Source: Yuukianura sp. NJ FZ-2021 (Eukaryota). From it: DNA of 64,000 nucleotides. The notes beneath the pieces are model-generated. The model made no database searches. It saw only the letters and a list, made by a program, of their open reading frames with translations, and was not told where the DNA came from. Each line of letters starts with the position of its first letter. Positions within the stretch are counted from its first letter, which is position 1. This document shows positions 1,193 to 45,200 of this stretch, one piece after another. Location of the stretch: contig CM102285.1 in the NCBI GenBank assembly GCA_046563655.1, forward strand, positions 1,736,001 to 1,800,000. The letters run 5' to 3'. Both the position numbers and the translations under genes were made by a program.

Positions 1193-3093
1193 CTATGGAA
1201 CCAGTTCGTATTCAACGCCCGTTGAGCGGATAGTCTCGTCGAGCTCAGCTGCAATATAGTCAACAAATTCTATTGCACTTTCTTCCGTCGGACAAATTTT
1301 GCCATCTACTCCAATGCAGTAACGAAATGTTCCATTGTAAGATGCAATAGTCGCCGTCAGCCCTGTACAGATATACATTTCGTTATATCAAACCTTGCAA
1401 AGACGATATAAATAAGTATCGTCAGATTAATTATAGTGAATTCCCGTGCAAAATATTGTCGACCTTGGAAATTAATAATACTAGAGATCACTTTGAGATG
1501 AATCCGAAAACTGATTTTTAGTCAGGAGGTCAGCAGTTACTAATTATTAAAGAAAACCGCTTAGAAATCAGAGTAGTGGTTATTGAGTTATAAGCGTTAC
1601 AGACGGACGGACGGACAGACACGGACGGATGGACAGACGGGCAATACAATCCCTATCTGACGATACTAAATAATTATACATGCTGAGCAATATATTTGAT
1701 ATGTACTAGTTATTCACACGATATTTACAGATAACTAGGCTATTATCGATATTTTCTGTTTACCATAAGAACAACCGTTGATAGCATACTCCATGTCCTT
1801 CACCACATTTCCACCAATGGAAAATGCCTTTGTAGGTCCAGGAAACGCGCTAGCGACCACCGTATTAAGTCGGACAACCGGAAACATCCACCGCATTGGC
1901 AATGAACCAATGAATGCAGCCAACAGGAATCTAACTGCAGCCGATTTCGTTCGGCGCTCTGCATTTGCGTAGCGTTCAAGCAATGCCAATCTTTCATGGG
2001 CACTGGCAGCTCCGACTGGCAACGGTATGTCAAGGGTGTACCTTACAAATAAACAAGTCAGTTAAAATTACTAGTACTACTCTTCCAAAAAATTAAAATA
2101 TCTCCGTTTCTTTGTATACACTTTATTTGTAAGTTTCTGGGGGTGATTTGGCGAAAAAACTGCAGTGATACATCCCATTTCCTGTGGAATCGACTTCCCT
2201 TCGTTTTGAAGTTTTCTTCGTATTGCCCCTGTGAGCAGCCCAATCATCACGATGGACACGGACACGTTGAGTTTTGAACTCAACTGTTTGACTTGACCCA
2301 GGTCAAATGACCTTGACATTGGAAAGTATCTTACTCCGGTAAGATTGGAAGAATCAAAAATCATTGGAGTGGAATCCATTGAATTAAAAATGAGATTGAA
2401 GTAAGAGGAGATGAAATATAAGATGCGTCGGAAAAAATCCAAACACGATGTTCGCTGTTGTCGAAATTGAATTCGTTGCGGCTCGGAGTCCGCTACACGC
2501 ATCAAAACACCAAAAATTGCTTCGCCATCACACAAACTGTGGTGGAATTTGAAACAAATGAAGTGACAATCAGAGTTATCTCCGAATTCCAAAAATGTCG
2601 CTTCCCACGGACTGGATTTTTCTGGAAAAGGAGTCTGGAGCATGCGCTCGAACTGCGCATGCGCGTCAGCCTCTTGGTCCAAAGTGACGTGATGGATGTG
2701 TTTGTCCATGTCGAATGACTCCTCCCACTTCCAGAAGGCGTATCCACCAAACATAGTTGGATACTGCTGGAATTCGGGATAAACGAACTCACCCGAATCA
2801 TTCCGAACGAAAATGCACTTCGTTCGGAATCGTTCTTTTAGTAAATCACTGTTCAGTTTTCCTGAAACTTTGAACCAAATGAGAATATTTAGTGCTTTGT
2901 GGGGTCGGCAAGATAAGTATGTTTGACTCTGCGGAGGCAAAATTTTGTGTAACTTTTTTGAAAACAAGGGTACAAATTTTGCTAGAATTTGTCTGTAGAG
3001 TAGAACGGGCAAAGCTAGAAAAATGAATAGAAGAAATGCAACACCGAGAAGAAATTTTGCTACTAGTTTGACTATTGATTTGATGAAATCCAT
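1193..3093 (-). CDS. WS/DGAT-like (wax ester synthase/diacylglycerol O-acyltransferase family) protein, 3 exons
   Basis: Exons ~3093-2120, 2041-1764 and 1362-1193 join in frame at GT-AG sites. Features: N-terminal hydrophobic segment, catalytic motif KFHHSLCDG (HHxxxDG), PW motif (SSPWE), C-terminal 'SAFPGP...TIASYNG...IGVD' typical of the WS/DGAT C-terminal domain. Confidence 0.8.
1415..1667. mobile_element. Short non-autonomous element (DINE-1/Helentron-like or MITE) in acyltransferase intron 2
   Basis: 13-bp inverted repeat agtatcgtcagat (1415-1427) / atctgacgatact (1655-1667) enclosing a GGAC/AGAC microsatellite (~1598-1640). The same microsatellite recurs at ~19775-19801. Confidence 0.5.
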
Positions 3094-3854
3094 TGCAAGT
3101 TAATTAGTAGTGTTCTTATAGCTCTAAAATTGCCTCTTGTCTGGTAGTATTACTTGTAAGACTACTTTTGTAACTTGTACTTAATTTTTTGTTTTTTGTA
3201 AGAAGATAACTCAACCGGATTGAACCGGATTGGTTGCGTCATAACCGATGTTTTGCTCAATCTCACTACTAATGATAGGTTCGCAGTCCAAGTGCTAAAG
3301 TTTGTCAAAGTAAAGCAAAGTTTTTTTCTGGACATTGATGGTGGTTTTAACTTACTCAAAAGCGTCAAAAATAGTAAAATTTTTGTGATTTAAGTTATGA
3401 AAAATTCTGATTGTGCGAGATGGTAATATTTTTTTGGTTTTGGTTTTAATCAGGTACGATAACGAAAGGAAGCTTTTCAGGACATGGCACTTGCAAATTG
3501 TATTTTTCACTTGCATTGTACGGATATGCGTAATAGAATAATTTAAGGATTTAAATCTCTGACAGCACCTTAAATTTTCGAGGTTATTTTAAGAAATCTA
3601 AAATTTTCAGATTTAGGTTACAAAACCTAAAATTTTCACAGTTAGGTTCCAAAACCTAACATTTTTTGGTTAGATTATACTTAGCCTAATCTGGTAACAT
3701 TGTTTTTTGGAGAGCCGTTGAATTTCAGAGGTAGGACGGCATCGCTCGAGCGTTTTCAGCCCCTCACTTCGTTTTCGCTTGGTCATCATCCTCACTATAT
3801 GCGGAGGTTAGAAGTGTTAGAACAAATATGCTATAAGTTTAAACTACTTTTAAA

Positions 3855-9800: not shown

Positions 9801-12800
9801 GTGACATTTCAATTGTTAAATTTAACAACTTTCAGATTCGCATTGTCAAATTTTTTTAATTTCATAACTTTGCAAACTTACGCGTTCGTGGATACGTTCA
9901 CTCATGGTAGGTTTGCGTTTTTCTGCGCGTGCAACTTTGAGCCACTTCACCAACGGCTTGATTGTCATTCCCTGCAAAGGCAAAATCGCCAATATAATAA
10001 CATATAATCTAATATTTATAATATCATATTATAAATGTGCTGTTTTTGGCGGGAATTAGTAGTTACCTGAACGAATACTGTGAAGAACACAACGCAGATT
10101 GTGGTGGTGATGAACATGTTGCGTACGTCATCCGGTATCATTGAATTGTGTTCTGGAATGAGCAGCGCAAGCGCAAAGGCCACCGCCCCACGCAACCCAC
10201 CGTAACACATCACAAATTGATCCACCGCTCCGAGGTGGTTCAGTCTAAAGTGATTCGCCAGTGCAGTGAGGATGACCACGCCTAAACAAGGTCAAAGGTC
10301 AATTTTAGGTGTTCGAATTCCAAAATACCGGTCTCTACAGAAGTAGTTCTTGAGTTTGGAAATGACCGCCAAGGAAACTTTAGTAGTTCCCTTGGTGTTC
10401 TTTTTAAAACTCGTCAACTACTTCTGTGCAGAACGATAGATTAATCCGAGGCACGTTATAATCTGTGCAAGCTAAACCAAGTTTAGGTAGGATTGGTCGA
10501 AACCATGGTTGATAAACAAAGAAAATACTTTTTCTTTAAAAGGTTAGTCAATAACTCGAGTTTTAAGTTTTTTGTGGAAAATGTTCAAAACTGAGTTCAC
10601 CCAGTTTCAATCGCCGTTGATGTCGTAAATGTAATTTAAAAAATTTACAGAGATGGCTTTTGAATTGACAAATTCAAAGTAGACTAGGGGTAAAAGGTAG
10701 AAAAAAAACTAAAAAGGTAGAAAGAATGTAGAAAATTTGTTTGACTCAAGACTTTTTAAAAACTCGAGTTATTGCCTAACCTGTCAAAGAGAAACTAACT
10801 TGTTGTCAAGACACCTTGGGTCGAAACGTAGTGTAAATTTGGTCAAATTTTGTAGAGTGGTGCTTATTAGTTGAAGTTTTTATGCTGGCAAGTAAGTCAG
10901 GAGATGTGAAAGGTCAAATTTACCTATAGATCTATGAAGTGTGCAGAATACGATGGTGAAGAAGATGAACCAGAAGTTCCACTCGTGATTGTCATTGATA
11001 GTACTCACACCTAGGAACATAAAGATGATCGTCTCTGACGAACTGCTCAGCATCTTCATGGCGTACTTGACAGTAGTGTGTGATTTTTGGGAAATGTTGG
11101 CTTCAACATAGTTTTTCATTGTAATTCCACAGAAAGTAATGCTGGATATCATAACAAACTTAAATTTTGGCACTGGATTATTTTTTGAAAATATTTTTTG
11201 CCAACTTACGCCAAAATGCCTGACATGTGGAATGTTTCTGCAGTGAGGTAGGAGAGGTAGGCCATCACAAAGACGAAGATTGGTTCAATCACTCTCGTGT
11301 GATTTGTGAAACGTGTGACAAAGCCGGTTAAAAAGCCCCAAATGATTCCAATGGCCGTCCCACCGAGAGCCACCACTGGAAACGAAACAATGCCTTTTCC
11401 CACTTCCGCGTAAGTCACGTTCTCTTCACCCATTAACACAAAGTTCTCAAAAGTGTGATACAAAACCTGAAAAAATTGAAAAATTCCAATTTTGTATAAT
11501 TAAAAAAACGATGCAAAGAAAACAGGAAATTTTTCTGGAGAGAAAATGTTTTGAAACTTTTTTTTGCCAGCTAAAGTGGATTGCCGTTCTTATTTTTTGT
11601 GAGAACAATTGACTAAAGAGCGGCAGGTTTCTGAAATTTCGAAATTTATTTCGAATGTTTCCCTTTTTCAATTGATTTTTTTGTCTAAAAATTTTTGAAA
11701 ACATGAATAGAATACTATGCTATAGAACCCCTGGCATATTTTTTCCATTTCAATTTTTTATCGGCTGAAATTTCTACCGCAGTGGCCGAAATTGGAATTT
11801 TGTTGACTAAATCGGAAGTTTTATTCCATGTATTTTTTCTATCAAAATTTTTGTGACAATTTAATACTTTTTCCTGTCTAGTTTTTCATTTTTTGGAAAA
11901 GGAACTGAAGAAAACCACAAGAAAATTGGACTTTACACGCACAGAAAAAACGGAGCAATGAAGTTGTAATTCTGGAACCTTATAATTCCATTGTTTCATT
12001 CACGTTCATCACAATTTTGCTGTTTGGACTTTTGCCAAAAAACGTTTTCGCTATTTTTTGCAAATTATATACCGTGCTACTTTTTTCTTGAAGAACTTAC
12101 GTAAAACATATTTTTTAGTTACGTATTTTTGGTCGATCTAGTTGATGTTCTCAAGTGATAACTTTAATAATGAAAAAGCCCTTCTAGCACTCCTATGCTT
12201 CTACTTCTAGAATGCAGCGAAAGTAGTTACGAATTGTAAGAAATTGTGGTAGTGGTCTACATAGGTACTTCCGCCACTGAAGGCTAGATTTTAGATTCTG
12301 ATATTCTCCAGAACTATTTCTCCACTATTCTGTCGTTTAATAAAATTCTGTGCTAAGGTACACGCGATTTGGACATAAATCCACCCATAAATACCCTTGA
12401 AAAATATGTTGAAATTGTTTACCTACCTACCTTTCTACGCCAACCTAACTTATTTTAGACTAACTTCGTATAACCTAAGCAGCAGGACTGCGTAATCCAG
12501 CTTTACTAACTTCCTAGTATGTCCGATTATTTACTTAGGTATGGCGTAGGTGAAATTTACCAAACTTAATCAACTAATCTTAATCAGTCTAAGTGAAAAA
12601 TAAGCGTCCGTTGTAGAATACCTTCCTATTAGGCTAGATTAGGTTAGGCATATTAGGTTAAGATTAGGTTGCGGACTTACCACAGTGACGGCGTCATTGA
12701 GAAGCGACTCTCCAAAGACTACGATATACAGAATTTCATTGACGTGAATTTCTTCAAAAACGGCAAGAACTGCTACTGGATCCACAGCAGAAATCAAGGC

Positions 12801-15800
12801 ACTGAACAGAAAAGTGTGCAAAATGTTCATTGTCAGTCCGATTGGGCCAAACATTCCCAACAAGTTCAAACCCCACAAGCTGGCACCTAAAAATAAAAAA
12901 AAATATTTCAAAAGTTTGAATTTAGTCACTCGAAATTTTTTTCCAGACAAAGTAACATTAAATTCCATTTTTTCAGGCAAAAACTACTTGCTGTTTTTGA
13001 AATTCTGTTGCGGCATTTATCTTTAAAATTTGAAAAAAGTTGAACAAAATGCACCCGCGAAAAAATCCTCCTCGTATAGTGTGCAATGTGGGAAAATTTG
13101 AAAAAAATGGATATCGCCGGGAAAAAGTTTTTCGAAGAAATTCAATTTCTTGCAAGTCCTTGCGAATTTACTTCCATTTCTTGTTGAAATACTTTGAAGA
13201 ATATTTGTGTGAGAATATTATTGTGCACTTTTAGAATTTTTTGTCTTATTTTTTCTTACCAATTGCAAAAGTGTTCCATAGCGTGCCGACGACTGCAAAT
13301 AGAAGAATTGTTCCTAAATTGCTGAAAAAGAGGCGATTGGGCATGAAGTATCCCGCGTCGAGGATAATAGGCGGCAGCATGTAGAAGAAGAAAGTGTCTG
13401 GGGTCAGAGGTTGACCGCCGAGTGGATTTGAAGTGTTGAACAGCAGCAGGCCAATTGCAATTCCAACCACAATTAGAAGGCACGACTCTGGGAAAATGTG
13501 GCTCAGTTTTGGCGCCATGTGAAACACTAAACAAACATTCAAACACTAATTAGGTCAAAGGTCAAGCATAATTGTTGTCAAATTTAACTAATTTTGATTG
13601 TTCACAAAGTCACAATAAATTTAGTAACGTATTCCACAATTTTTTTTGTACAACATCGGTAAAAATTTACAACAATTTTGACTTTTACTGGAAAATCGTA
13701 AACACAGGTTTTATAAATAGGTGAAATTTTTTTTTGAAAATTGGAACAAATTTTTTGTAGATAATTTGTATTGTACGAGACTCCTGACCTCAACCAATCA
13801 ACACCCACGTAAATTAGTGATTTCCGTTAATTATTGTCATAGTCTAATTAATTAGCTCTCTCACGCCCTCTGCCCTCAGATTAGTCATTTCAAGAACTTT
13901 GCCCTTCTGTGTAATTAAAAGTCTACGTCTCATATTATGTGAGTGTGATGCTCTCCACTTTTCTTGGTTTTGACGAACTGGTTTTGCGTGTTCTTGGTAA
14001 TACAAAACATTTCTTGATTGTTGACTCATTCTTGTATGTTTTTTCTTCTTCCCCTGCAAATTTTTTGCACATGAGCTTTTAATCTCTTACTTTGACGTGC
14101 GAAAACTGTACAACACGTACTTTGTACTATGAACTTGTGCAAAAATTTAACAAAAATCTTTGCAAAAAAGAAACAGCAGAGGGTGGCAGAAAAAGACAAT
14201 AGGTCAGGGATCTCACGTCAAGTGGAAAATTCTGAGGCCATTCTCCCCATTACACAGGACCATTGTGAGTCTACTTTTTAATAAACACATAGTGTTTATT
14301 ATAAGAAGTGCTAAAAAGCTGCGAAGAAGCCAATTTGTGAAGTTTTTCAAAATTTATTGACAAAATTACACAAAAAGTTATGACTTGTTTGACCTTAAGC
14401 TTTTGCCTACTAAAATTAACTTTGTGTTGCAATAAAATGTTTTAGGATGAATTTTTTAGTATTTAATGGTTTCAAAAAAATTATGTTATGAAACTGCTTT
14501 TCGAAAGAAGTGTTTAGAAATTTCCTTATTTTTTTGAAATTGGTGTTTTTAAAGTTAAGTAAAAAATGTATGACATCATGCGTTTGTTGACCTTTAAAGT
14601 TTAAATTTTCCAGAAGCGTAGTTTTCAAAAAATAATTGCTTGAGTTTGAAGTTAATGAAATTTTGATAATTAAATGAGACCTTGATAATGAGAAAATTTT
14701 AGTTAATTAATGAAAACCGGTTGGACGCGTCAGCTTTTAGTTCCGGTTGTCAAAACTTCGCAAATCGTAACAATTTGAGGAGAAAACAGGAACTCGAACA
14801 GTTTAAATTTTGCGAAATTTGATTCATTACGCCTGGGAGTTAAAAACTTTAGGAAAAGCATTGACCATAGGAGTTCACTGCATGAACCTACCCAAACATT
14901 TTGTTATTGAGGTTAAGCCATTTTTTTTATATCCATTTTTGCAACACGTTAATACTTTGTTACTAATTTGTAATTTGCAAATTCCTATAAGTTCCAAAGT
15001 TTTACAAAACCTGAAAAAAGATGTAACAAAATTTTTAGCTAAAAGTGCTAAAGCTTTAACTACAAGATTTTAACCATTTGAAAATCAAAATTTCGAAGAT
15101 TACAAAAATTCAAAAATTGTCAAATTTGAAAACAGAGGTTTACTTGAAACCGGAGCAAATCGAATTTGACACAAACCTCATACACTACGTTGCTGTCTGC
15201 TTTCTTTGCAATTTTTTTGCGATTTTGTGCAAAATGCAAACTTACTACGCAGTTGCACTGTTCAATCGTAAAGATCTCATTCAGCAATAAGTTTTCTTTA
15301 TACACACGTTTTGAACTTTAGTAAAACAGAGTCAGTAGAGCAGGAAGAAAATCCTTTTTCTTGCAATTTCTAAAAGCATGATACAAAAAAAATTAATTGT
15401 GTTTTGTATCACGCTTTGGTTTTTGGAACGAAATGTGCAAAATCAGAATATAACAAATTCCTGGAAACCTTGAAAACCATTCTTGGCAAAAACCCATTCC
15501 AAATTCATTTTAAATAACTTCAAACATAATAGAAACAAAAAAAGCTTAAAAAAACATTTCTAATTAACACAAGATTAATTTGGCGCTAAAAATCAATTAG
15601 TAGAAATTGTCAACTGAGATATCGTCAAGGCCAAGTCGTCAACTTAACAAATGCGTCGTTTTAAATTAGGAATGTCAATAATTTTTCATTTGTCATCAGT
15701 TTAATTGCCGTTCCACAAAAACATACTCGATACTGGGGGACATCATGTGATTAGTTTAGTAAGATTAATTATGATTACGATTGGGAAATCATAAATAGCA

Positions 15801-18800
15801 AATGTGCAAAATTAGCAAAAAGTACAGCTTTTTTGAGATTTACGAATTTGCCCAAATGGTGGCTGAATAAAATTTACTAAAAATAAAATTAAGTTATTTT
15901 TTAAACTTATTTTTAGGTATATTTTATGCAAACCAAAATCAGTTCCTTTTTTTAAAATTCTAATTTTTGACAAACAGCAGATGGAAAAGGACATGTTGCA
16001 AAGCCAATTTTAGAATTTTGGACAAATTTATACAGTTTCACATTCAACTTTATTTTGGTCGTTTTTTCCTTGTAAATTGTGTAATTCATCATAATGATTT
16101 TTCATGGCATTCCTCAGGTATTCCTATTATACTTTGCCAAAGTTGCAAATTTTTGCCAACTGGGCAAATTTTTGTTATTTTTAGCGGAAGGGTGGAATTG
16201 TAATGTAAAATATGCTAGTCAAACTTGACATTGAAGTCGATGTCAACCTTTACATACAATAAGAGATAAACCACAGATTTTGGGGGGAAAAAGTTGTGTA
16301 ACTTTGGTGACAGAATTTTTGCAAAACTGACAAATTGAGGAAATGCTTGAGATAAAAAAAAGTTTTAGCAAAAAAAAGTCAGAAATTTTCTGCAGGAACA
16401 CAAGTAGCATTAAAAAGAAAAATTGCGGAAATTTTTTAGATTTTTCTCCCAAGTTAGCCTTCGTCACAAGGCGTCAAGGCATTAGTTCATGCGAGATGAA
16501 AATTTCTGTGATTTTTAAATAGATATGCCTAATTAATGGGAACTGTTTTGCGGGCAAAATATGAAATTGGCCAATTTTTCCATGAAATTATGCCTAACTT
16601 CAATGAAATTCAAAAGTTAGTTGCATAAAACCTTATGCTACGACGTAATCTTACACGTTCGATTGTTCTAAACAGTTTCAATTAATAACTTAACACGTTC
16701 CGGGATTTGACAAGTTAATTAATCACAGATTATAACACGACCGTAGCATTTTGAAACAAAAGGCGTGAAATTCATTGTGTTCAAAATTACAACCGTAACA
16801 TTCCAGTCCAAAAATCAAACTTTTTGACCTTTTCTCGGTGTCAAAGCAGAGGTTTTGAAAATTTTCAACACCAAATATGGTAGCGCTTTTAGGAACATGA
16901 ATCATGCCATCAAGTGAAGTGATGTTTTTGGCAATTTCAAAGTTTACGGTTGAAGTGAAAAGTTGAAAATTTTTAACCTTTCATTGGCAAAACACGAATG
17001 CTCGCATGGAAAATTTTTTATAAAAACTTGAAACTTTTTCAGAAAGTTGAAGTCGATTTTAAAGTTGAAAACTTAACAAAAGATTAACTTGATAGGATTT
17101 TGCTCGCGAATTTTGAAGTTAACTTCATCCTATTGTCATTTTGAATTGAGTAATCTACTTTTCGGACACACTCGTGTTTTTTCAAACCTTTCACGGAAAA
17201 AAACGATGAGGCTTTGAAGTATGTTGAAGTCAATTGTATTTGGCGCCTGACCACTACATGATTGTTCAAAACGCGTCAACATGTGTAACCATTCACCCAA
17301 TTCGGTCACTTGTTGGCAAGGTCAGAGATCAAATCATGTCAACTTCATGTCCAACTATTTGTCATAATTTAAGAAAATTTACGAGCTATTGAATCCTCAG
17401 TATTTGTGGGATTTGCCAATTCAAACGCTAGCGTTTCAAATTTCAAAACTCAGACGCATTTGCACCAAAATTTAAGGAGAAAATTCGAAACACATTTCTC
17501 AAAATTTCAAAACAAAATGAAGTTAAAGTTTATGCACAAATTGAAAAGTTAAACGTTTATGACCATTTTTCATTTACTATCGATCACAACTTTGCTGCTT
17601 TTCTTAACTTGTAAGGTTTGCCTTAACATAACGCTTTTATTTTTCGCGTACCTAACATAGTACCTATATGCCCCTGACTCCGTTCCCATCCTTGATGACC
17701 TCTGAATGGTATCACTTTCAAAGGTCAACTACAACCTATCAATTATCAATCTGGGAAGGTAACCACCAAAAACTGCACATACTCCTACCCTGTCCTATAC
17801 ATTATGTACAGCCCCTCCAAAAAACTTATGCAAGAGTCACTCAACCCAAAGCCAAACTGTTTTTTTCCACGAACAGTTTCCAATTCCTGGTCAATAAGTG
17901 AATTTTACGACTAAACTGAATAGACTATAAACCGTATTGATTCGGACTTTCAGTTGACCTCTGACCTTTAGCTCAACTTATTCTTTTAGAGAACGGTGAA
18001 CCCTGATCTTCCGGCAACCAGTAAACAGACAAAAGGAATCGAAAAAAGACTTTCTCTTTGTCGAAACGGCGAAAGCAAATTTCCTCAAACCCACACTTTT
18101 CCTTTCGGATCAACATTCAGCTTCATATTTCATGGATGAGGCTTTATTTCGCCTCCTCAACACAAAAACAGCACGAGTTTCAAATCCCTTCTAAATAATT
18201 TCATCGCTACCACTCCCTGGAGTGGAGTTTAGCACGCGTCCATGGTAACCCAATGCTAAATCATGGTAACAAGCTCTCTTCCTGTCCAACTTTTGTGTTT
18301 CCAACCATTTTTATACTGCATCATGCGTCACCAAAAACATCTGATGAGCAGACCTGCCAAAAATAATTACTAAAACTAGCGAAATGTTTAAATAAATACA
18401 AAATTTACTGAAAAGGCTCAAAATAATTACGAATTTAACATTACAGGAATGGGAACTAAATATTTTTGGTACATCTGCTCATAAGTAAATTCAAGGATGC
18501 TAACAGTGAAATGAAAATGTTCAGTTCCAAGCTTTTAAAAAATGTTAAGATTTTGAAAATGTAAAAGCTTCAGTTGCATTGTTGAAAAAAAATGTGGAAA
18601 GTGAAACGTTTCATAGTTTGTGACCAAGTTAAGTTGGTGACTTATGATTTTTTTTGGATTACATGGCTCTAGTTACATAATTTTGTTAAGCTAGGTTAAC
18701 TTAGGCTTTCTCCAGGTTACGTTTATTAAGTTGCAAACTCACCAATTTTGGCCAAAGAGGCACAGAAAATCCATAGGGCAATTATGAAGGGCGTTTCCAC

Positions 18801-19040
18801 TCTTTCGAAGTCTATTTGAACAATTGTAATTCCATGCTCGTCTGCAGGTTCTCCTTCTCTCAGTAGATCATGTGGCGATCCGAAACTTGCTTCGCCGGCA
18901 ACTTTCCGAATGTAAATTGTAAACAAATAGTAACCTAGGATGATGTAGAAGTATCTTCTGGAATTCAGTGGTTTCAGACGACTACTGTCTTTGTCTTCAG
19001 TAGTTCCTGTCTTGTCAGTAGTTAGCTTAGTAGAGGTCAT
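3855..19040 (-). CDS. Sodium/hydrogen exchanger (SLC9A/CPA1, arthropod NHE2/NHE3-type), main isoform
   Basis: In-frame exons: 19040-18743, 13526-13260, 12886-12681, 11466-11210, 11141-10924, 10281-10067, 9971-9882, 9679-9609, 8587-8345, 8264-8126, 7971-7840, 6889-6835, 6652-6554, 4939-4898, 4786-4643, 4306-3855. Hallmark motifs: [79 protein letters not shown]. Ends in -TKL. Confidence 0.95.
4412..4602. mobile_element. hAT-like MITE (degenerate) in last NHE intron
   Basis: Imperfect TIRs cagggttgtcaaaaata / tatttttgacatctctg. Flanking 8-mers atcataat / attataac (6/8 match). The subterminal sequence is shared with the 18349-18477 element. Confidence 0.55.
5755..6203 (-). CDS. Putative alternative terminal exon of the NHE gene
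   Basis: AG acceptor at 6205-6204 is phase-compatible with the 6554 donor. ~149 open codons contain [13 protein letters not shown], resembling [13 protein letters not shown] of the 4786-4643 exon. Ends ...LCACS*. Confidence 0.6.
10530..10795. mobile_element. MITE/foldback element in NHE intron
   Basis: ~35-bp inverted repeat: aggttagtcaataactcgagttttaa (~10541-10566) vs ttaaaaactcgagttattgcctaacct (~10756-10782), with weaker similarity extending outward. Confidence 0.55.
18349..18477. mobile_element. hAT-like MITE (short, degenerate)
   Basis: TIR cagacctgccaaaaa / ttttggtacatctg. Flanks ctgatgag / ctcataag (6/8 match). The left end matches the 29797 element and the right end matches the 4412 element. 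Confidence 0.55.
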
Positions 19041-22000
19041 TTTGAAGTGAGAGGTCAAAGGGCGAGGTGATTCGTAGTGCTTAAACTATGAATTTTTACG
19101 AATTTTGATGAGGTTGTAACTTTCTGCGTTCGAAATTCTAGAGACAGTCAGATCCAATTTTCATGACCTGAAAAACAAACAAAAGTTTTAGAATGAGAGA
19201 AAGTGAAGAGTTTTGGGATTTCTAGAACGCAACGACGTCATAGCCTTTTTTTTCTAAAAAAGAAACAAGCGGGCTGAATGTTTTGAAATGCTTTTTTAAA
19301 TGGTGAACTTGTTTATGGTTTTAAGCGGGGGCTAAAAGGTACTTCAACTATAATGTTTTCCGTGTTTACGCACACGTATTGCATATTCAAAAATTTTATG
19401 TTACACTACACCTTCTTCCGTTTTTTTCTAAAAATTCACCACTTTGTTTGCAAAGCAGAAGTGATAAAGTAGCGAAATCGAGACGAGGTACTATCACAGT
19501 TCAACTAACACCGTTAATAAAATGTTTTCCAACTTTTAAAAAGGTGAAAAGTATTGATAAAAATAAATAGTAAAAGTTATAATCAAGCCGTTAATTTTTA
19601 CTAATTAATTATCTAATTTCGGATTTTCTATTAGCTTAAAAAGCAACCATTACATTGCTAGGTGTAAGAGTTAATAAAAAGTATAAAACAACAAAAGCAA
19701 TGAGTACATATTAAATCAAAACTCAAATGGAGAGCTGAAAAAAATGCAGCCACAACACGGCTGCAAGCGGTCGGCGGACAGACAGACGGACGGACAGACA
19801 GAAACTATGAAGCAGTCACACATCGTTGTAGAAATTAGAAAACCTCAAGTCATCAAACCCTCAAGATAGAAGATACCGTAAGACATTCACACTCACATGC
19901 ACTTTCACTGAAGTCTCCTTGTGCTAAAATTAGCTTCAAATACAATTCTTCCCCTTCATTTCCTTCTCTATTTCAACAACAACAGTCACTCTGTTCAACG
20001 TTTAAAAAAACTCTGAATGTTTTGGTCATCATTTCCTCATTCTACACCTTAGTGCCATAACCGAAAACTAAATAAAACCTAATTCACAAACAGGCTAAAC
20101 ATGTTTTAGGCTTGGCCTGTTTAGACTGTTCCAGGAAGCACACAGGCGCAAAAACCTAATTCAGTTTCAGTTGAAAATGAATCAAAAAAGTTGTTTCCTC
20201 GCTTTCTGATTCGATTCATTTTCATTAAAATAAACATTTGGACAAGATTAAAACAAAAGAACACGCGAATTCACTCTGCAAACAAAAAATACTCATAGCT
20301 TTGCACAAAACAGTTTTTCATTTTTTCATTTCAGAATTTCAACTGAAAGGACAATGCCACTACCATTACTACTGCTGTATCACTAAACAGTGTTCTTTTT
20401 GTGTCCATTTTGCACTACTTTTTTGAAAATCGAAATTTACCGCCACTTTTGCAATATTTAAACCCATTTCAAGGGAATTACTTTCTTGCTAAACTTATTG
20501 ACTAAGGTGGGACTTGGTTAATTATTTAAGCCTTCTTGGAAATGACACATCAAATGTCATTCCAGTTTGAACTCGCAAAAGGAATCGATAGAGAGGTGAC
20601 CTTCCGTTTCATGTAACCAAACAAACATTTCACAATTTACAAGAAAAAAGCGCAAAAATTTGAAAAAAAAAAGTTGATTCATAAATGTTTGATTTTACCT
20701 TGAAAAGTTTGCAAAAATAGAAGCCTTCCAAATGGCACGAAAAGTTTTGTTAAAAAATGTCGTGGGCCAATTTGTTTCTTCCAAAACCTCAAAATAATTT
20801 GCACAAAACACACAAATTTTCATGGGCAAAGTTTTTGCAAATTTGCAATTTCTTGCTGTTTTTGTGTCGTGTGAATGCGGAAAATGCACTTGACTTCTCA
20901 CAAACCTAAAGAAAAACCGTTATAAGGTCGACTGCACTTTGAAAAAAAAAATTATACCTTTAAGATTTTAGTCCCAAAACTTCTTTGCGAGTCTCCTACG
21001 CTTCAAAATTTTAACGTGTTTGCTGTTTATTTTTGGCAACTTTACAACTTTTTCAGAGTGCAAAACATTGCTAAGATTAGTCCAAAATGGAGGCAGTAGT
21101 TCACGAAGAGTGTTCAAATAAATAATAAAGACGTAGACACAGGAAGAACTTTTTGAAAAAACGGCAACTGATGAGCAAACGTTTAAATTCAAAAATAAAG
21201 TTAATGGCACTAATTTGCTTGGAAATGGTACTTGAAATTTCAAAAACTGAAATTTTATAAGACTTATTGTTGTAAAATTTTTGAACAAAGTGTGCCGGTT
21301 TGACTCGATATGTCTTTTCAGTTGAATCACTCGTAGGAGACTGTAGTAGAACAACCAAAACTATTGACCAAACGCTCGGCTGAGTTCGCACAAACCAAAA
21401 GCCACCTCTTTCACAGTTTGTACTTTTTAGGCGGAATAACTCGAGGGAATTCGCGTACAACCACAAGGGAATGCCAACAACATGTTCAACGTCACAGGAA
21501 ATAGCATATACATTATGTTATATTATATACAATAATGTAACAAAAATTCTAGATAATCAAGGTTTGTTGAATTTGATTTCCTTTAACAGGTTGAGTAATA
21601 CCTCATGTTTTTTTGATTTTGCGAAAAAAAGAGTGGCTTTCATTTCAGGGTAATGAAGTCATAACAATACAGGCGATTTTTTAAATTTTACGTACGAATT
21701 GGCACAAATTTTTGCTTTTATTTTTTTCATTTTTTGGTTGGGTTTTCTAAAGTAAAAATTATGATTTGTTAGAGATTCTTTTAGTGCGATTTTTTGAAAT
21801 TTGTGTTCAGAGCAAAATATATGTTTATATTATTTATGTTTAGCTAATGTAAAATTTAAACTTTTCTAATAATCCTTTTGATATAAACACATATAAAATA
21901 TTTAAATGAGTAACTGAATATAAAAATTTATGTAATTTTTTATATCATACATTTTTTTTTAGAGTTTTGTTGAAGCACAGTATATGCCCTTGTGAACTTT

Positions 22001-25000: not shown

Positions 25001-27188
25001 CTTAGGAATTAAGAGTGATGATTGTTTTACAAAGTAATTATAAATTTTGTTAACAAGAAATTGACAAGCGTGTAAACTATTTCTTTGGAAGAAACAAAAA
25101 ATTAATCAAATGTTTTTCAAATTTAAAACAATGGAATCATTAATACTGAATTCACATCTTATTTGTCAAAGTCAAAATTAAAACTTGTCAACATACTTTG
25201 AAGTCCACAAGAACAAAATGACTAATTTAGTGTAATTAGCATATCCCGTAAAAAGCCCAAGCACCATACAGTTAATTAATCTATGATTAATTATAATTTC
25301 CAAATAGGAATTACTCACAAAAAGGTTTTTAGCACCATGACGAAATCGATGTGCAAATTTACGCAATAATAGAACCGAAGAAACGCCGCCGCGCTTATTG
25401 TTGTTCGAATGTGTCACAACATACTATGTCATTTGGTAAACAACAAAACCTAAACGAAAATTATACCAACAAATACAGTTCATCAAATACAAAATGTTTT
25501 TGTAGTTCATTTTTTGTACAATTTGCATTCGTACAAGTAAATAGATTATACCATATTACAACTTAAATAAAGAATGTGTATCAAATCGCGTGTTTCGGTA
25601 AAAATTGTTTACCAAATGACATAAATGTTAGGAATGCGAATGACAGTGTAGCTGCACTTAAGCGCGGCGCACAACTCCTCCTATACTCTGACTTAGTTTA
25701 AAACCCCATTGTTACTATAAATATAGCATCCACCACCATTTTCTAAAAATGTTTTTGCTAAACAGTTTTTCTAAAAAACCGCTAAGGAACATTTTTTTTA
25801 GACTAAACGCGCGTCGATGTTTGAAATAATGATGCCAATTGGAGATTAGTTATGAAGGTGTCAGATCCTTTGCAAATTGAGTCCAGAGACTTCGTTCGAC
25901 TAGCGAATTCTGTCTTCTGGAGGATTTGCTTCAAGGATGACAAGGTTAAATTCAGGTACGTTTGTAACTCTGCATGGTATTGATTCCTTTGACATACATT
26001 ATGCAATATGTTTTAGTCATTTAAATTAAAGGAATTAGTTAAGTCAATTAACAACACATTTAATAAGTTTAGTAAAGATGACGGGAATTGGATTACTTTT
26101 TGAAGTTAAACTCTCACCAGCCCCCCATACCTTACTACAGATAGAACCATTTGAATTATCACATTTTTTTCAAATTTTAAACTTAACCGCCCATAAAATC
26201 TAAACTTTACACCGCACGTGCCGCAATTTAAAAAAAGCGGTAAAATTTGACTTTGAATTACCCCGCCCCCATTTCATACACGCGCCTTCATTCATTCCAT
26301 TTCTAACGCCCAAGCGCACTTAAACAAACCATTAAAAAGGTGCGAATTTGAATTTCCCGCATTTTTTTGAAGCGTTATGATTCTACCGTGATTTTTAAAA
26401 TCTACTTCAAATAATTCTTGAGATTTGCATTTGTAATTCGGGCAAGTTTGAAGAGACGCGCAGTGTCGTTTTTAAACCAAAAAAAAATTCAGAATGTGGA
26501 GAAAATTTAAAATTTGAAAGTGTTGCTTTTTGAAAAATTGCCCTAAAGTTCATTTTCTAAATTTTGAATTTTTTGAAATGACACTCTAGTGGTTAGGCCG
26601 TTTTGTAAATTCCTGTCACTCCTAAAGCGCACCCAAATTCTTCCCGCTAAAAGATGAATTTGGGATTGACAGTGACAAATTCCTTACTCATCTTAACTTA
26701 ATCATTAATGAAAGTTTTAGGCTCTTAACCTTGAGAAATTGACGAAAAACTAATTGTAGTAATTTAACAAATTTTAGTGTTAAATTGATTAAAAACGGAG
26801 AGAGACAATGGAAAATTGATGAATGGTTAAAGATGAAGGTGAATTGGCAAAAAAGTTGAAAATTTTGAATTATGACTTTCCCAGACACGACTCACAGTCT
26901 GTAAATTTAGTCAAGGTTCATGGAATACGGATCATCGTAGTAGTCCAGCATAGCACGAAGACAACTCATGTAAATGAAGAAGTTTATGAGCTGTGAAGTC
27001 AGGCGCTGTCCGGCTTTTGCTTCTGGTCTTCGTTGACGTCGTCTTCGGTCGGACCTGGTCGGTTTCTGAAGTTGCGCAGATTCGACAGAACTTCGTCCAA
27101 GGAGTTGCGCAGAGTCAGTAGCGTTGGTTCCGCTGGAAGGAGATAAGAGGTCAGGAAGAATTTGTCCAAATTCTAAGAAGAAGTGAGG

Positions 27189-30100
27189 TCAAGAGTAGTC
27201 TGTCGTCGTCACGTGAGATTTGAGCGGAATTCCAAGCGTCGCTGCTACAAGCCCATAGCGTTCAATCTGCATGGCATGGACACAGTGCCACCTAAAACAT
27301 GGTTCAATACATTGAATTCGTTTTTTTTTTCAAAAAATTAAAACTTTCTAAAATTTTGAAACAAAACAGTATATGCTCACCGGTCAGTCCGTGGATTGTA
27401 CTTTTCAACGGTATTGAGGAAATGTACGCCATCGAATCCTCCGAGGCAGTAAATCCTTCCAGAATTCACCGTCGTCCCAAAACTGCTTCTCGGAATGCTC
27501 ATGTTGGACACTTTAGACCACTGGCCACACATGATATCAAATCTAACAAGCCAAGCCAAAACATAAACATAATGCCTCAATTCAAAGATACATAGATTCA
27601 TACTCATATGTTAGATAGAGAAATGAGGTCACGAGGTCAATTGTCTATTTCCATACCTCTCTACGGTACGTAACCACAGCTTGCCGTTACACCCTCCCAT
27701 GACATAGATATGGCAGTCCATCACAGCAGCACTGAAATGATAACACAAATGTAAAATGTTGACATGGAGTTGTAGTTTATGAAAAAACGGATGTTGACGT
27801 TTGACCCGCGGGTAAAATTCAATGTACGTCATGATAGTAGTATTTCCTTGACTATAAGCCGCACTCATGTATAAGCCGCACCAAGAAATTCTCAAAAATA
27901 CCTTAATAGCGCGAAAACATGTAGTTTAAAACATGTGAACTGAGATTTCACACCTGGTTTCTTACTCTTGCGGTCAAGTTAATTTCTACATCAGTATAAC
28001 TCATAAGTTTTTAACGATGGATGTGACAGTCTTTCCAAAATGAAAAAAAAGAGACGGTCACTACGTAAGAAAACGCCAAAATGGCCTGAGCTAGAACGGG
28101 AATTGAGCAAATGGATTAGGGACAGGCGTGACATGAAAGCCCGGGTTCATGAAACGAAACAACTTCTCAATCCGGTGCAGAACCTCCGTTGGTCAGCCAC
28201 TGCCAGAAGACTGGTCAGAAAAGTTGGAACTTTTTCGCGCTTATGTGGCTGAAAAGAAGTGTCTGGGGTCAATCTCCACAAAAAACATGTTCAACATGGA
28301 CGAAGTTCCGTGTCGCACCAGAACCATTGCTGAAACGGGTCAAAAGGATGTCACATTGGTTACCACTGGCTCTGAGAAAAAAAGTTTCACGGTAATCTTG
28401 GCCGTAAGTGCTGAAGGGGAGAAATTGGTGGGATGGATTTGATGAATTGACACTAGATTAGAACAGTTTAACGTAGAGTCTAGTACGTTTTCACACAATT
28501 CCTACTCTTGATTAAAAAAAATCTGTAGTTTTCAGGAAAAGAGAAATTTTTTTTTTCAAAATTTTCCGAAATTTCTTAGATATGCCGCGGCTTGTAGTCA
28601 AGGAAATACGTAGTTTACTGACCTGTGAAACGCTCTTTCCTCATGCATTGGAGCCAGTGTCGTCCAATTACAAGTGATCGGATCATACTTTTCAACGGAA
28701 GATAAAAACCTAGCGTCGGACTCGTTTTTGCCACCGATTCCACCAATGGCGTACAACTCTCCAGTGTTGCTACAAACTGCTACGTGAGCTCGATGTGTTG
28801 ACATTGGCAGTGATTCGTTCCAACAGTCGCTTTTTTCGTCATAAACCTGCAACAAATCGAAAATTACATGAATACTTACAAAAAAAAATCCAACTTTCTC
28901 GAAATCTATCCTTCAGTCACAGAAACTTGCCAATTTTTGTAAGATTTTTTGAAACTTAACCCAAATTCGTTTTTCATGGGACTGTGAACTACGGCCACCG
29001 ACGACGTAAAGGCGCGTGTTGACGATAGCTGCTCCACATCCATGAACAGAAATTGGCAGTGGACTCAGAGCCGTCCAGCGGTTTTCCAGGATATTGTACC
29101 GCTCTACGGTGTTTACCGGAAATCCACAGTCTTGCCCTCCTGTTAAAAAAGAATTTGACCTTTGACCTTACAATTTTTACGAAACTTTATATTTTTAGGG
29201 AATAAGGATGTTGAAGTAAGTTACCAATGACATAGAGTGTATGTTTTTCAGACGCTGTTGCTGGATAGTAGCGACACTGCTTCATCGTCGGCACGACCGT
29301 CATTTCCAGCGATTCATTCGGACTAGTTGGCAGTGGCATTGGAATGCTGCATTTCCATCCGTCGTATCCCATCATGAAGCACTCCACGTTACTCAGACTC
29401 TGACCTTGAGATTCTCCACCCACGGCAAATATCACCTGAGTCAAAAAAATAATCAAAATTTTTCAAAATTTCAATTATTTTTGGATTAGTTTACTTTGAA
29501 ACTTACATCCTGTTGGTGGAAACATCTTCCGCGTACTGGACGTGACAGAGCCTCGTCTTCAACGTACTCAACCCCATCAAACTTCCTGGCAATGACGTGT
29601 GTCAACACACTCCTAATTAATTTCTCAATGACAGGAGAGGCCGTGACCACAGGATGTTGAATCACTTCAATTAAAACTTGTGGCATAATGTCCACCAGGT
29701 CAATTTTGTCCAGAAAAGAAACCAAGTGGGGAGTACGTTTTCCGGCGTCATGATTGGTCCACTCAAGTAGAGCCTAAAAAGTAGTCCACAAATTAGTAGA
29801 CCTGCCAAAAATATGTGCCAAAAACCAAAAAAAAATATTTATTTAATATTTACTATCCAAACTCAAAAATAGTTATCTAAATATTTTATTAAAATATTTA
29901 GATATTATAAAATATTATTTTATCTAAATATTTACTAAAATGGACAATATTTATGTGAAAAAAATGTTAATTGCGTTAAACAAGGTCGCAGAGCAGGAAG
30001 TTCGCTATCATTTACGAGATTTCCAAGTTTTTTTTTTCCCAAAAATCGGAAAACATCGCGTCAAGCGCTTTATGTTTTCAAAAATCGTCAAAAAATGTTG

Positions 30101-32268
30101 TAAAATATTTAGAATTTTCGTCAATATTTTGTATTCCCTTTTTTCCTACAAATATTTTTTTGTAAGATATTTTTATATTTAAATATTATATGTATTTGGC
30201 AGGTCTACAAATTAGTCTCAAAGTATTCCGGAATTAGGCTCATGCCAAAACCACTTTCTGATGCTCCGCAGCACTTGACCTTTTGAGATATAATTCGGGT
30301 GACCTACTTCGGAGAGAGAGTGACGTAGAGACTATAAAAAAGACTAAAATGGTTGCCCTTGCAGACAGGAGGACAAGAGAAAGTCGTGTTCCATTTGTTT
30401 GACGTTGCTTTCAACAAAATCAATATTTCATGCTCAAAGGCCACAAACCGAAAAAAAAATTTATGCAAAACCATTAAAAAAATTCTTTCGTCATTGCAGA
30501 ACATGCCGACCTACTTCCGCAATTTGTTAGAAAGAGGAAGTTGCGGAATTTTCAAATAGAAAAGCTAAGAAGATTTTACAAAAAGCAAATAACATTCTTC
30601 AAAAAAGGCTAAAAGCGCTGAGCTTCAGGATTTTCATGAGTTTCCGTTTTTTGAAATCCGAATGTAGGTCAAATCTTTTCATCTTGAAAATCAGAAAATC
30701 TAACAGAAATGGAGCCAAATTTCGAATTTTGATTTCTTCTAACCATGGACGTAACAAAAAATAATCGAATTTTGACTTAGGTTGAGCAACTTTTTCTTTA
30801 CGTTAACAAAAGTATCGAATTTTCTCAAAATATTAGTGTCAGGTTGAAAAATCTTAGAATTGTGTAGAAAATCAAAGAATTTTGTTGAAAAATATTAGAA
30901 AAACGTTCAAAAAATGTGTGAATTTTGTTGGAAAATAGAATTTTGTTCAAAAAATCATGGAATTGTGTTCAAAAACCTCAAAATTTGAATTTTCTGAAAC
31001 TCTAAGAAACAGACTCACCTTCAAGAGTTGTCCGTCATTATCACAGGCTAGATACGGCTCGTCCAGAAAAATGTTCAAGTACTCCGGCGACAGTTGGAGC
31101 CATTCCTCTCCCTCCATGGCTTCTCGGAAGTGTTCGATCGTGTAGTCCTTGGCAATTTGAGCCAAATCAAGGTGCAGTCGGAGTTGAGCCAATACAAAAA
31201 TTCCAAGACACGTTGATGGATTGAGATTTGTCGTGAGCCACCAGAGGCAGAGGTTCCGCAGAGACGGCAGTTGGAGCATGTCAGCAGCATCCAGCAGTCC
31301 ATCGACCAAGTGCTCATCAATCTAAAAATTTTGAAACCCAGGTTACAAAAACTGCTCAAAAATTTACATATTTTGACAAATCAAACTTTTTTGAAATGTT
31401 CACCTTGATTTTTCCAGTGTAGATGAAGTTGACAACGGCAAGTAAAACTTCAGATGAAATTTCATGAAACTTGACTTCTCCATTCTGAGCCTCTCTGAAA
31501 CCACAACTGAACATTTTCCTAGAAAGAGAAGACAAAAAAACTAACTCAATAAAAAAATATAAAATATAGTTTTTTTTTTAAATGAAGCTGAGAACCTTCG
31601 TACGTCACTTTATGAAAAGTCAAAAGTCACAAAAGCATATTTTATTTGCAACTACTCAGTCGTCCTTAGAAAGCGAAACTCAAAATTTAAATTGACGTCA
31701 AACTAAAAAGCAAGACTCACAAATAATGAATCAAATTAATTTTTCAATTCAATTCACGATATGAAGCACGACAAATGCTGAGCTGGACAAAAAGTAGGTC
31801 AAAAGCTGAATAAGGTCAAACTCAAAGTAGATTTTCATGATAAAAAACACAAAAATTTCAAATTTTTCAAGGTTTTTTAAAAATTTTCAAAATTTACCGG
31901 AAGTAAGGCGAAGCGGCAGCGAGAACGACTTTGTGAGCTGCGATCCGATGAGTCGAAGTGTCAACGCAAAGATTGACGTCGCAGAGGGACTCGTCGTCTC
32001 GCATTGCCTTCAAACTAGCGAGTAATTGGGAAGACATTTGTGAGTCGGAGAGATCTGGAAATTCAAACAAATCAAAATTTCAAAAAAGTTCAAAAAATGA
32101 GTCCAATTTTTGAAATCTCCAGCACTTACCTGTCCCTCCACCATTCGGTTTGTCAATTTCATCTTGTCCAGAACTGTCCAGTCCAGTCGTCTTTTGCGGT
32201 GATATTCGGCACAAACACGTTTTGCAGTCACCCACGTTCAAATTCCTCGTCCACCGACTACTGCTCAT
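27189..32268 (-). CDS. Kelch-like protein (BTB-BACK-Kelch, KLHL family)
   Basis: In-frame exons: 32268-32130, 32054-31898, 31518-31404, 31321-31019, 29773-29507, 29435-29225, 29139-28961, 28846-28623, 27731-27657, 27542-27381, 27291-27189. BTB: LCDVNL...AHKVVLAAASPYFRKMFS...NFIYTG. BACK: LLDAADMLQL...NLNPSTCLGI. Kelch repeats: IFAVGG, LYVIGG, LYVVGG, LYAIGG, IYVMGG, IYCLGG. Confidence 0.93.
27840..28610 (+). mobile_element. Internally deleted pogo/Tigger-like (Tc1/mariner superfamily) DNA transposon in a kelch intron
   Basis: TIRs gtatttccttgactataagccgc (27840-27862) / gcggcttgtagtcaaggaaatac (28587-28609), with TA near both ends. Frameshifted transposase fragments: KWPELERELSKWIRDRR (CENP-B-type HTH) and MFNMDEVP...TTGSEKKSFTVILAVSAEGEKL (DDE_1 N-terminal part). 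Confidence 0.85.
29797..30207. mobile_element. hAT-superfamily MITE with perfect 8-bp target-site duplication
   Basis: Perfect 13-bp TIR tagacctgccaaa / tttggcaggtcta. Identical 8-bp flanks caaattag (29789-29796 and 30208-30215). No coding capacity. Confidence 0.85.
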
Positions 32269-42200: not shown

Positions 42201-45200
42201 AAAATTTAAGCCTGAACTCTGCTTTGCTTCTAAGGTCAACGAAAAACAATGACAAGAAACAAAGTATGACTTCCATTTTTTTTTCAAAAATTGTTTTAAG
42301 CTTTAGTCATTCTTCTTAGCATAATATACAACATGCGTTCAAAATTCCGCGCCACAAACTAAACTAACTTACACACAACGTCACGTGATGAGCAATTTTT
42401 TGGATGTCACGTGATGGAAATTTTTCGTGAGCTTTCAGTGGAAATGTTTGGAGTGAATTTATTAGCTTTTAGGAAAAAAAAACACCTTAGGAAAACTCTT
42501 TTTCATTTTTATAAACTTTTTGTTAAATAACGCCTTCGAATTGAATGATGATGACATCAATCTCATTTCTCATCCGCGATTACTTTGTTCAGTGCTGTTT
42601 GAATTTTCGCGGTGAAAGTATGAAGACTTGAGTTAGAGTGTGACTCGCTTTTGACTTAAAAGCGAAATTGTGACGAAACCGATAGGAACCGCAGCTTTCA
42701 CTTTTCATTGTGTCAACTTTTACTTTTGGTAGGAAAAGTTGGAATTTGAAAAAGTTTGCTCTCACAGAGAAAGTTTGTGAGCCGTGCCAAGTTTTTGATC
42801 GGATTTTCCTACAAAACTTTTTTGCTAATGAGAAGGAAGAATGAGAGGAAAAAAGCCTCCAGGTGAAAATTCATTTTTCACAATTTCCGGTTCAATCGAC
42901 CGAAAACTTCAAAGTTTCCCGCCGCAAATGTCAAGGAAAAGCTTTTCCTGGTTCCTGGTCCCGCTTCGATCGTTTCACCACTATAAAAAATTTTTTGCTT
43001 GTGGTGTGTTTTTTAGTGTTACTTTTCAACTTGAACAATTTAGTTTGGTCTAATTTTGTCGTCTTTTACCTTTCTAGTCATCACTTTTATTTGCATTTAA
43101 ACAACTGTATAACACGGGAAAGCTAAACATACACTGGTTGATTTTTGCACAACTTTGAATTTTTTTTTCTCTGTTTGAGTTTCCTTTCAAATCGCTTTTG
43201 TGTATTTTCATGCTTTTTTGAAACACTCATATCAATAACTGAGAAATTGCCAAATTTTTGCTTGTGTGATGAAAAATTTGACGTTTTCACAGTTGAACAA
43301 ACTTTTCATAGTTTTATTGCATATAATTTATATGCTTGTCTTTTTTTTCTGGAAACAGCATGTAGCGGTTTGCTTTTGCTCAGATTAGGTTATGATATGT
43401 TGTGTTTAGCGTACAATCGTACGGTTTTTGATCAAGTTCTGGTTGCACTTATTTGTGTGGCTCCAGTTCCTGTAGCTCTATTTGCATGAGTTGTGTATCA
43501 ATTTCATTTTTTTAAACAATACCAGCTTAAAAATTAAAATCATTTTGTTCTTTGTGCATTCCTTTTTTTTTGTTAGTGTTTAATTATGTTAGATTTACCA
43601 AAAGTTTTATGTTTGCAGACTTACAAAAAGTGGACAAATTACCGTAGTTTTTGACATGAAAGACACCGGTTTAGCGAACATGGACATGGACTTTGTTCGC
43701 TACCTCATTTCACTACTGCAGCAGTACTACCCCTACTTCATCAACTACCTCCTCATCTACGAAATGCCTTGGATCCTCAAATGTAAGCAACCACACTCCG
43801 TTTTCTCTTTACTTTCACTTTTCAATTTAGAAAAAACGGGAAAGGAGTTCAAAATTATTTATAACTTGAGTGAATTATTCATTTCCTAGATTGTTTTTGT
43901 TTTCTTTTCCAGCGGCCTGGAACATCATCAAAACCATGTTGAACAAAAAGGAAGTCGAGAGAATCAAGTTTGTGGACAAGAAGACTATTAACGACTACAT
44001 TGACACTCAGAATCAACTTGTGGAATGGGGAGGCACTGACGCCTATGAGTATTCTTTTGAACCAGAGGTCAAGGCCACAAGAAAGCCCTCACTCAAAACA
44101 TTGTCGCTCAATAACAATCTATCATCTAGCGAAGATTCCAGCCCGGAAGGTAAAGCAGGACGGAGAGGAAAGGTTAGTGGCATTTGAATTATGTTGCCAT
44201 GGCAACACCGTTTTCTCGAAATGTTTTCCAACACGAAATAATTAGTTCGACTTCGCTTGGAAAAAATTATGCTCCTGCCTGCTCGAAACTTAATTTCAAA
44301 GTCGTCACATGACAAAGCGTTACACAAGCTCTCTCGACTTGAAAAATGAACCGATTTTCACACACGACACAACGAATTGATATCAGAGAGATGCGTAAGT
44401 TGAGACAAAAACTTAACAAATATATTTCATGTCTTTTCAGGTCCAATTTACAGATCGAGACGGAGCCATGGACGCTAGAAGCGTTGAGGTCACGGAGTCA
44501 CGCCGACGAAATGACGAGGTCAATGTCCCTCCGCAAATCCGACATCGGGCTGTTCGGCACAACGCATCGCCGGAATCTGGTGATACGTCTCCTTCCGTTC
44601 AAAGTAAGAAAAAGTTGTAAAATTTGCGACTGCGTAAACAAATTTTTTTATCACGAATTTTAGTCACGGTTTCCAGCCTTAAGAGCTTTGCACATGCGCA
44701 AAATTTCTTGCTCAAGCATAACTTTGCATAATTTTTTTTTGTTTAGACGCAACTGCGCAAACGCTGATCGAAACTAATGACGTCATTAATTTTACTTGGA
44801 ACGGAGAAGAGTTCCGTGGAGAAATTGACATTACAAATGTGTCCAGGGACAATGTTGCATTTAAGGTCAGTTTTAGTGACATTGAAAACAATATTTGTTA
44901 TAATACGAGCTTCATGATTCTATCCTGTGCTTAGATCAAAACAACATCTCCCGAGTCCTACCGAGTAGTTCCGTCCATCGGTATTGTGGCACCAGGAGCC
45001 GAGGCAATCGTGAATTTGGGCAGTTCTCGTGTCCTTCCCCGCAGTCACCGATTCCAAGTCCTCGCAGCCATCTTGCCACGTGACTTTGCACTTGAACAGG
45101 ACGAGAGTGATACTGGTACACTCGCAGATGAGTTTCCACGACTCAATGCTATGTGGAAGGTAGTAGGCAAAATCCCGCAGTTCTAAACTAAAAACTCAAA

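Follow-up and report, generated by a model that had tools for sequence, protein, structure and literature searches.

Probable UGA-C readthrough into a selected C-terminal extension of a springtail BTB-BACK-kelch gene

Does translation of a kelch-type gene in the springtail Yuukianura sp. NJ FZ-2021 always end at its UGA codon, or do some ribosomes continue into the reading frame that stays open behind it? The gene lies on the minus strand of a 64,000-nucleotide stretch of DNA (GenBank assembly GCA_046563655.1, contig CM102285.1, positions 1,736,001 to 1,800,000; hereafter the window), for which an earlier note had proposed a regulated isoform with a C-terminal extension. Comparison with relatives points to programmed UGA-C readthrough, which would yield a longer BTB-BACK-kelch isoform (probability roughly 0.88).

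A UGA-C stop codon followed by a long open frame

In the window, the kelch open reading frame (ORF) reads ...TTTDYS up to the TGA, behind which the same frame runs on to a TAA:

27188..27191, minus strand: first stop and its 3' base, TGA-C (TGA at 27191-27189, next bases CCT)
26910..27188, minus strand: candidate readthrough extension, 93 sense codons in frame with the kelch ORF
26907..26909, minus strand: second stop, TAA-A, where conservation ceases

The TGA-C, the 93 open in-frame codons and the TAA at 26909-26907 had all been claimed before and were recovered here with an identical peptide. So was the raised GC content of the extension, 0.48 compared with 0.23 for the last intron and 0.32 for the DNA past the second stop; the last coding exon has 0.52. 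When the bases of the extension were shuffled, 1.5% of 100,000 shuffles kept 93 codons open, in line with the ~1% estimated in the earlier note. The opening is real, yet a 1.5% chance taken over thousands of genes is weak and not significant by itself.

Conservation of stop, context and frame in close relatives

In one scan, metagenome contigs yielded 49 loci: 8 close ones (79-94% identical to exon 10), 11 that are cockroach/termite-like, and 30 distant ones (32-62% identity, other kelch proteins), which were left out of the comparison. All eight close loci have TGA-C at the identical place, followed by 85-123 sense codons. When the window is added, frame 0 holds no stop in 9/9 sequences, and each of the other sense frames holds 2-13. 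The first stop is TGA in all nine and never TAA or TAG, with T at -3 and C at +4 in 9/9 and C at +5 (TGA-CC) in 8/9. Synonymous sites between the loci are saturated (proportion of synonymous differences, pS, ~0.8), and nucleotide identity past the second stop, at 0.25-0.28, equals the chance level. The alignment of orthologous 3' regions, which the earlier note had named as a check, supports the C-terminal extension that it proposed, with UGA-C kept in 9/9, no frame-0 stop and two blocks under protein-level selection.

Three of the close loci (L003, L006 and L022) are without introns and are therefore regarded as transcripts. In each of them the TGA and the tail are contiguous in one piece, and the extension is present in spliced transcripts of relatives; these contigs speak against the possibility raised earlier, that the region is spliced out.

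Ten more distant orthologues, cockroach, decapod, thrips and hemichordate proteins among them, terminate shortly after the last kelch strand. Their ends lie at about the same point, so the UGA is an old terminus and did not arise by recent nonsense mutation. The annotated springtail proteins of Allacma fusca (...DYS) and Orchesella dallaii (...DFS) stop at the same residue position as the kelch-like ORF. The cockroach/termite-like loci (L008-L018, n = 11), so labelled from the likeness of their C-termini to Periplaneta and Diploptera, have TGA-T; 44 codons are open in nine of them and 21 in L017, and the frame of L018 is open up to the contig end. Across five of these loci the tail shows 26 synonymous and 67 non-synonymous differences and looks neutral, as does the pre-stop control (18/40).

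Protein-level selection on two blocks of the extension

Two blocks of the extension are under selection at the protein level:

27138..27188, minus strand: N block, 17 codons, PHFFLEFGQILPDLLSP, consensus P-x3-L-E-F-G-E-x-I-E-x-I-x-S-P, acidic and amphipathic
26946..26999, minus strand: C block, TSQLINFFIYMSCLRAML, predicted to form a hydrophobic helix in which Tyr and Cys are invariant

Aligned ungapped and anchored at the stop in seven loci (L019 and L022 omitted), the N block has identities by codon position of 0.71/0.87/0.36 and a ratio of non-synonymous to synonymous differences (pN/pS, uncorrected proportions with pS saturated near 0.8) of 0.28 in frame 0; the other two frames give 1.07 and 2.75. 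For 15 codons of the C block around Y-x-S-C, the nine loci give 0.62/0.81/0.35 and a pN/pS of 0.37. The last coding exon, used as a control, has 0.75/0.82/0.38 and 0.26, and the region past the second stop has 0.26/0.28/0.25 and 1.04. The middle of the tail differs among loci in both length and sequence while staying in frame throughout.

A profile of the tail, searched against 1.84 billion proteins, found five matches, all of the same family: two come from the contigs of L004 and L005, judging by sequence and length, and three are further relatives with both blocks. The Trp that stands at the stop position in three profile matches was rejected as a sense codon; it reflects a gene caller's code with TGA as Trp, and two of these proteins pass the second TGA too. 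Pfam has no family for the tail, the ESM Atlas gave no usable match for it, and a search of the window's own genome (G000) returned nothing besides the tail itself below E 0.1, the extension being single-copy there.

Readthrough weighed against other explanations

A micro-intron or alternative acceptor might skip the stop and make the tail an ordinary alternative exon part. Such a 42-nt excision in frame could be made in L003, L004 and L007 (3/9) by pairing GT at -21 with AG at +18, both in phase 0, and in the window a 40-nt GT..polypyrimidine-AG segment (27212-27173) would join a 57-codon frame; however, no donor/acceptor pair is common to all loci, an AG is missing from the first 30 nt in L005, the window's AG does not have the phase that frame 0 needs, and the candidate GT and AG derive from His-Val and Glu codons. 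The residues that would be lost are conserved coding sequence in Allacma and Orchesella, and the stop is retained in the three transcript contigs, including L003, itself one of the loci with the possible 42-nt skip. We consider splicing very unlikely. The 57-codon +1 frame behind the 40-nt candidate intron (27172-27002, minus strand) was rejected as it carries stops in relatives, and Pfam has no family for it. Adenosine-to-inosine editing, which would turn the UGA into UGI (read as Trp) in some transcripts, would give the same product by another mechanism. It appears highly improbable: the TGA is unedited in 3/3 transcript contigs and the conserved duplex across the stop is not significant (19 of 200 shuffles are equally stable), even though editing would leave an identical evolutionary signature and consensus contigs conceal minority edits.

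If the UGA instead encoded selenocysteine, the long form would be a selenoprotein. The exclusive use of TGA agrees with this, and the genome carries tRNA-Sec and SepSecS, but a pattern-and-pairing scan for the selenocysteine insertion sequence (SECIS) was positive in 0/9 downstream regions (the 3' untranslated region spanning only 155-357 nt for L003, L005 and L006) versus 2/2 of the best RF00031 matches of the genome, and an Rfam scan of the nine loci at E<=5 yielded no SECIS. With Cys at the stop position in no relative and a redox motif absent, there is only a very slight chance that selenocysteine accounts for the locus. The two positive controls sit behind SelT-like and thioredoxin-reductase-like frames with an in-frame TGA, both labelled from reading their translations. 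One (L057, minus strand) has SelT-like exons, the in-frame TGA and a SECIS-like element; in the other (L058, minus strand) the frame ends ...Asn-Cys-TGA-Ala-stop upstream of a SECIS-like element, and not in the Gly-Cys-Sec-Gly of thioredoxin reductase. The tail could further be a separate small ORF reached by reinitiation, the by-product of antisense coding, or an AMD1-type ribosome-stalling tail rather than part of a mature protein. A hydrophobic tail might exert its effect on the nascent chain or serve as a BAG6-type degron, and hydrophobic readthrough tails are reportedly BAG6 clients; yet a stalling or degron role would itself require readthrough, and 6 to 25 residues, depending on the locus, separate the invariant Cys from the second stop, contrary to a stall fixed there. 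The first Met lies at residue 4-87, past the conserved N block in 7/9 loci, and each antisense frame has 1-9 stops in all nine, so that we regard this group of explanations as extremely improbable.

Several points count against programmed readthrough itself. The case is built from sequence comparison throughout, and its transcript evidence comes from contigs of relatives (L003, L006 and L022), not from the organism of the window. By shuffling, the chance of an open frame is 0.001-0.029 per locus, but the nine sequences are kin and these probabilities are not simply multipliable. The N block is badly preserved in L019 and L022, with a pN/pS of 0.50 for all nine loci, and the whole tail has 0.58-0.77. 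The hydrophobic near-terminal helix is atypical beside fly readthrough tails, which the available part of PMC13278127 describes as disordered and poor in hydrophobic residues. There is also no significant conserved stimulatory RNA structure, in contrast to Drosophila kelch with its conserved stem-loop 8 nt past the stop (10.1101/2020.06.22.165522, as far as its accessible text goes). Around the stop studied here no consensus base pairs were found, folding z-scores of -1.7 to +0.9 indicate no significant structure, a weak hairpin is equalled by 19-35 of 200 shuffles, and the third-position bases of a possible GGNGA/UCNCC stem can pair in 4/7 loci only.

Proposed mechanism and known readthrough systems

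Under programmed readthrough, most ribosomes would terminate at the UGA and release a 644-aa BTB-BACK-kelch protein, by family a putative Cullin3 substrate adaptor. Some would instead insert a near-cognate amino acid at this weak UGA-C(C) context, probably at a modest rate, the near-cognate residues at UGA being Trp, Cys or Arg. Decoding through 93 further codons would then give a 738-aa isoform. The signal is likely to be the primary context rather than a hairpin; UGA-C is described as the leakiest stop context and as enriched in ancient readthrough genes (PMC5100048, PMC13278127, both in the parts available). Springtails seem to have gained the tail on a terminal stop that was already old, and because the gene is not orthologous to Drosophila kelch (see below), readthrough looks independently gained.

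By every feature testable here, the locus resembles a well-supported new example of a known recoding type, the conserved pancrustacean readthrough genes. The accessible portion of the survey of Drosophila and Anopheles (Jungreis et al. 2016, PMC5100048) describes genes with the same conserved TGA-C, a second ORF whose purifying selection at the protein level is weaker than that on ORF1, and a pancrustacean host. The exclusions applied there (splicing, a downstream ATG, the opposite strand, SECIS and a recent nonsense change) were passed here with simpler tools and without PhyloCSF. In contrast to that set, the host is a springtail, no mention of springtails or hexapods being found in the same portion of text, and the tail has no match outside these animals. 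Readthrough-added type 1 peroxisomal targeting signals (PTS1) on AGAP010769/CG1969 (PMC5100048, available part) offer a parallel in that a tail may alter protein location, but here conservation falls on an internal helix that lies 6-25 residues short of the C-terminus.

The comparison with Drosophila kelch drawn in the earlier note holds as an analogy, that of a KLHL gene with a UGA-gated tail, and fails as orthology on the evidence of the tree and of a separate KLHL2/3-type gene. According to the accessible text of 10.1101/2020.06.22.165522, the kelch ORF1-UGA-ORF2 gene likewise encodes a BTB-BACK-kelch Cullin3 adaptor whose propeller is followed by the UGA and then by an extension in the same frame, and its readthrough shows neuron-specific regulation; the gene studied here belongs to another KLHL subfamily, and its tail has 93 aa versus 782 aa in kelch.

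No report of springtail readthrough was found in the open literature, subscription journals being mostly outside this coverage. As a deep and clean case from a hexapod outside the insects, the locus would agree with the proposal of abundant readthrough across Pancrustacea. An isoform is probably missing from the Allacma and Orchesella dallaii annotations, both of which terminate at the first stop. A UGA-gated tail in another KLHL gene besides fly kelch, and an unrelated one, suggests repeated retargeting of E3 adaptors, and a short tail with two defined blocks should make function more readily testable than in the 782-aa ORF2 of kelch.

Architecture and possible function of the tail

From the stop onwards the tail consists of an acidic amphipathic segment (net charge -2 to -4 in 8/9), a linker, a basic patch, the hydrophobic Tyr/Cys helix and 6-25 variable residues. 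The linker of the window contains SAQL twice, encoded by a 10-nt direct repeat (27112-27103 and 27079-27070, minus strand, 33 nt apart) that reads as an in-frame micro-duplication. The basic patch includes the following feature:

27024..27047, minus strand: Arg cluster ahead of the C block, kept by composition

This cluster had been likened to a nuclear localization signal (NLS). A basic patch is indeed kept in 9/9 (5-10 K/R within 21 residues), but it has no fixed motif. Conservation is strongest in the acidic helix after the stop and in the hydrophobic Tyr/Cys helix, and an NLS accounts for neither.

AlphaFold2, applied to L003 read through the stop, predicted a confident propeller, disorder at 330-385 (predicted local distance difference test, pLDDT, <50) and a helix at 387-411 (pLDDT 70-81). 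The Kyte-Doolittle maximum over 19 residues is 0.97-1.46 in 7/9 loci and 0.01-0.28 in L005 and L006, making the helix marginal as a membrane span in seven and too polar in two. C-terminal residues differ among loci, with no PTS1 or other fixed terminal motif. Given this marginal or too polar helix and its variable distance to the stop, tail anchoring, a terminal motif and stalling are all less likely than a peripheral anchor or a partner-binding helix.

We infer that the tail may retarget the adaptor. Peripheral membrane attachment through the basic patch and a hydrophobic or S-acylated helix can be put forward tentatively, as can, with the same reserve, docking on a protein partner; a role as degron is unlikely, and nuclear import equally so. 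A more far-reaching and rather doubtful proposal is that readthrough, gained independently on a second KLHL branch, acts as a targeting switch, in which a lineage-specific basic patch and a Tyr/Cys helix, possibly S-acylated, hold the long isoform at a membrane or partner. If true, one mRNA would give a free and an anchored ubiquitin ligase, and, unlike in typical insect tails, selection would favour a near-terminal hydrophobic helix of a kind normally destroyed by quality control.

Gene model and family identity

The kelch gene model (minus strand, 32268..27189) has 11 exons, every intron being GT-AG, and a product of 644 aa:

32130..32268, minus strand: exon 1, ATG at 32268, N-terminus like those of the Allacma and Orchesella orthologues
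31019..32054, minus strand: exons 2-4 (32054-31898, 31518-31404, 31321-31019), BTB and start of BACK
29507..29773, minus strand: exon 5, remainder of BACK
27381..29435, minus strand: exons 6-10 (29435-29225, 29139-28961, 28846-28623, 27731-27657, 27542-27381), kelch propeller
27192..27291, minus strand: exon 11, coding part to the first stop, C-terminus ...DYS

Pfam matched BACK and Kelch_1 in the window exons, and BTB, BACK and Kelch in the Allacma orthologue. The nearest named proteins are those of the springtails Allacma fusca (68% identical) and Orchesella dallaii (67%). Judged by these matches, the gene is a member of the KLHL (BTB-BACK-kelch) family with six predicted kelch repeats, and the AlphaFold2 model of the orthologue L003 has the strand pattern of a six-bladed propeller (pLDDT >90).

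In a quick IQ-TREE run of 38 rows, Drosophila Kelch itself not among them, the window protein, Allacma and Orchesella clustered with cockroach, thrips and malacostracan proteins (11 rows, Shimodaira-Hasegawa-like approximate likelihood ratio test 100). A hemichordate protein joined next outside this arthropod group, and the dipteran rows all fell outside. Against the PDB, the kelch domain of L003 matched KLHL12, KEAP1 and KLHL20 best, and KLHL2/3 were absent among the best 60 of 109 matches. A separate KLHL2/3-type gene (L064), with KLHL3 and KLHL2 as best natural PDB matches, lies elsewhere in the genome. The BACK exon has KLHL3 as its best PDB match, among few BACK entries, and points towards KLHL2/3. 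On the tree grouping and the separate gene, orthology with Drosophila kelch, whose product we take to be the KLHL2/3 orthologue, was rejected. The KLHL2/3-type gene (L064:1710-1755, G000:C2 near 6.595 Mb) seems to end in TAA-G with a second TAA two codons on, and there appears to be no kelch-type readthrough at this locus. Its stop is overlapped by GTAAGC, which could serve as a splice donor.

Elsewhere in the window, by the look of their translations, lie what are presumably Na+/H+ exchanger-like exons (10880-19085, minus strand), a wax-ester/acyltransferase-like ORF (2077-3099, minus strand) and CRAL-TRIO/MSP-like exons (43870-44663, plus strand).

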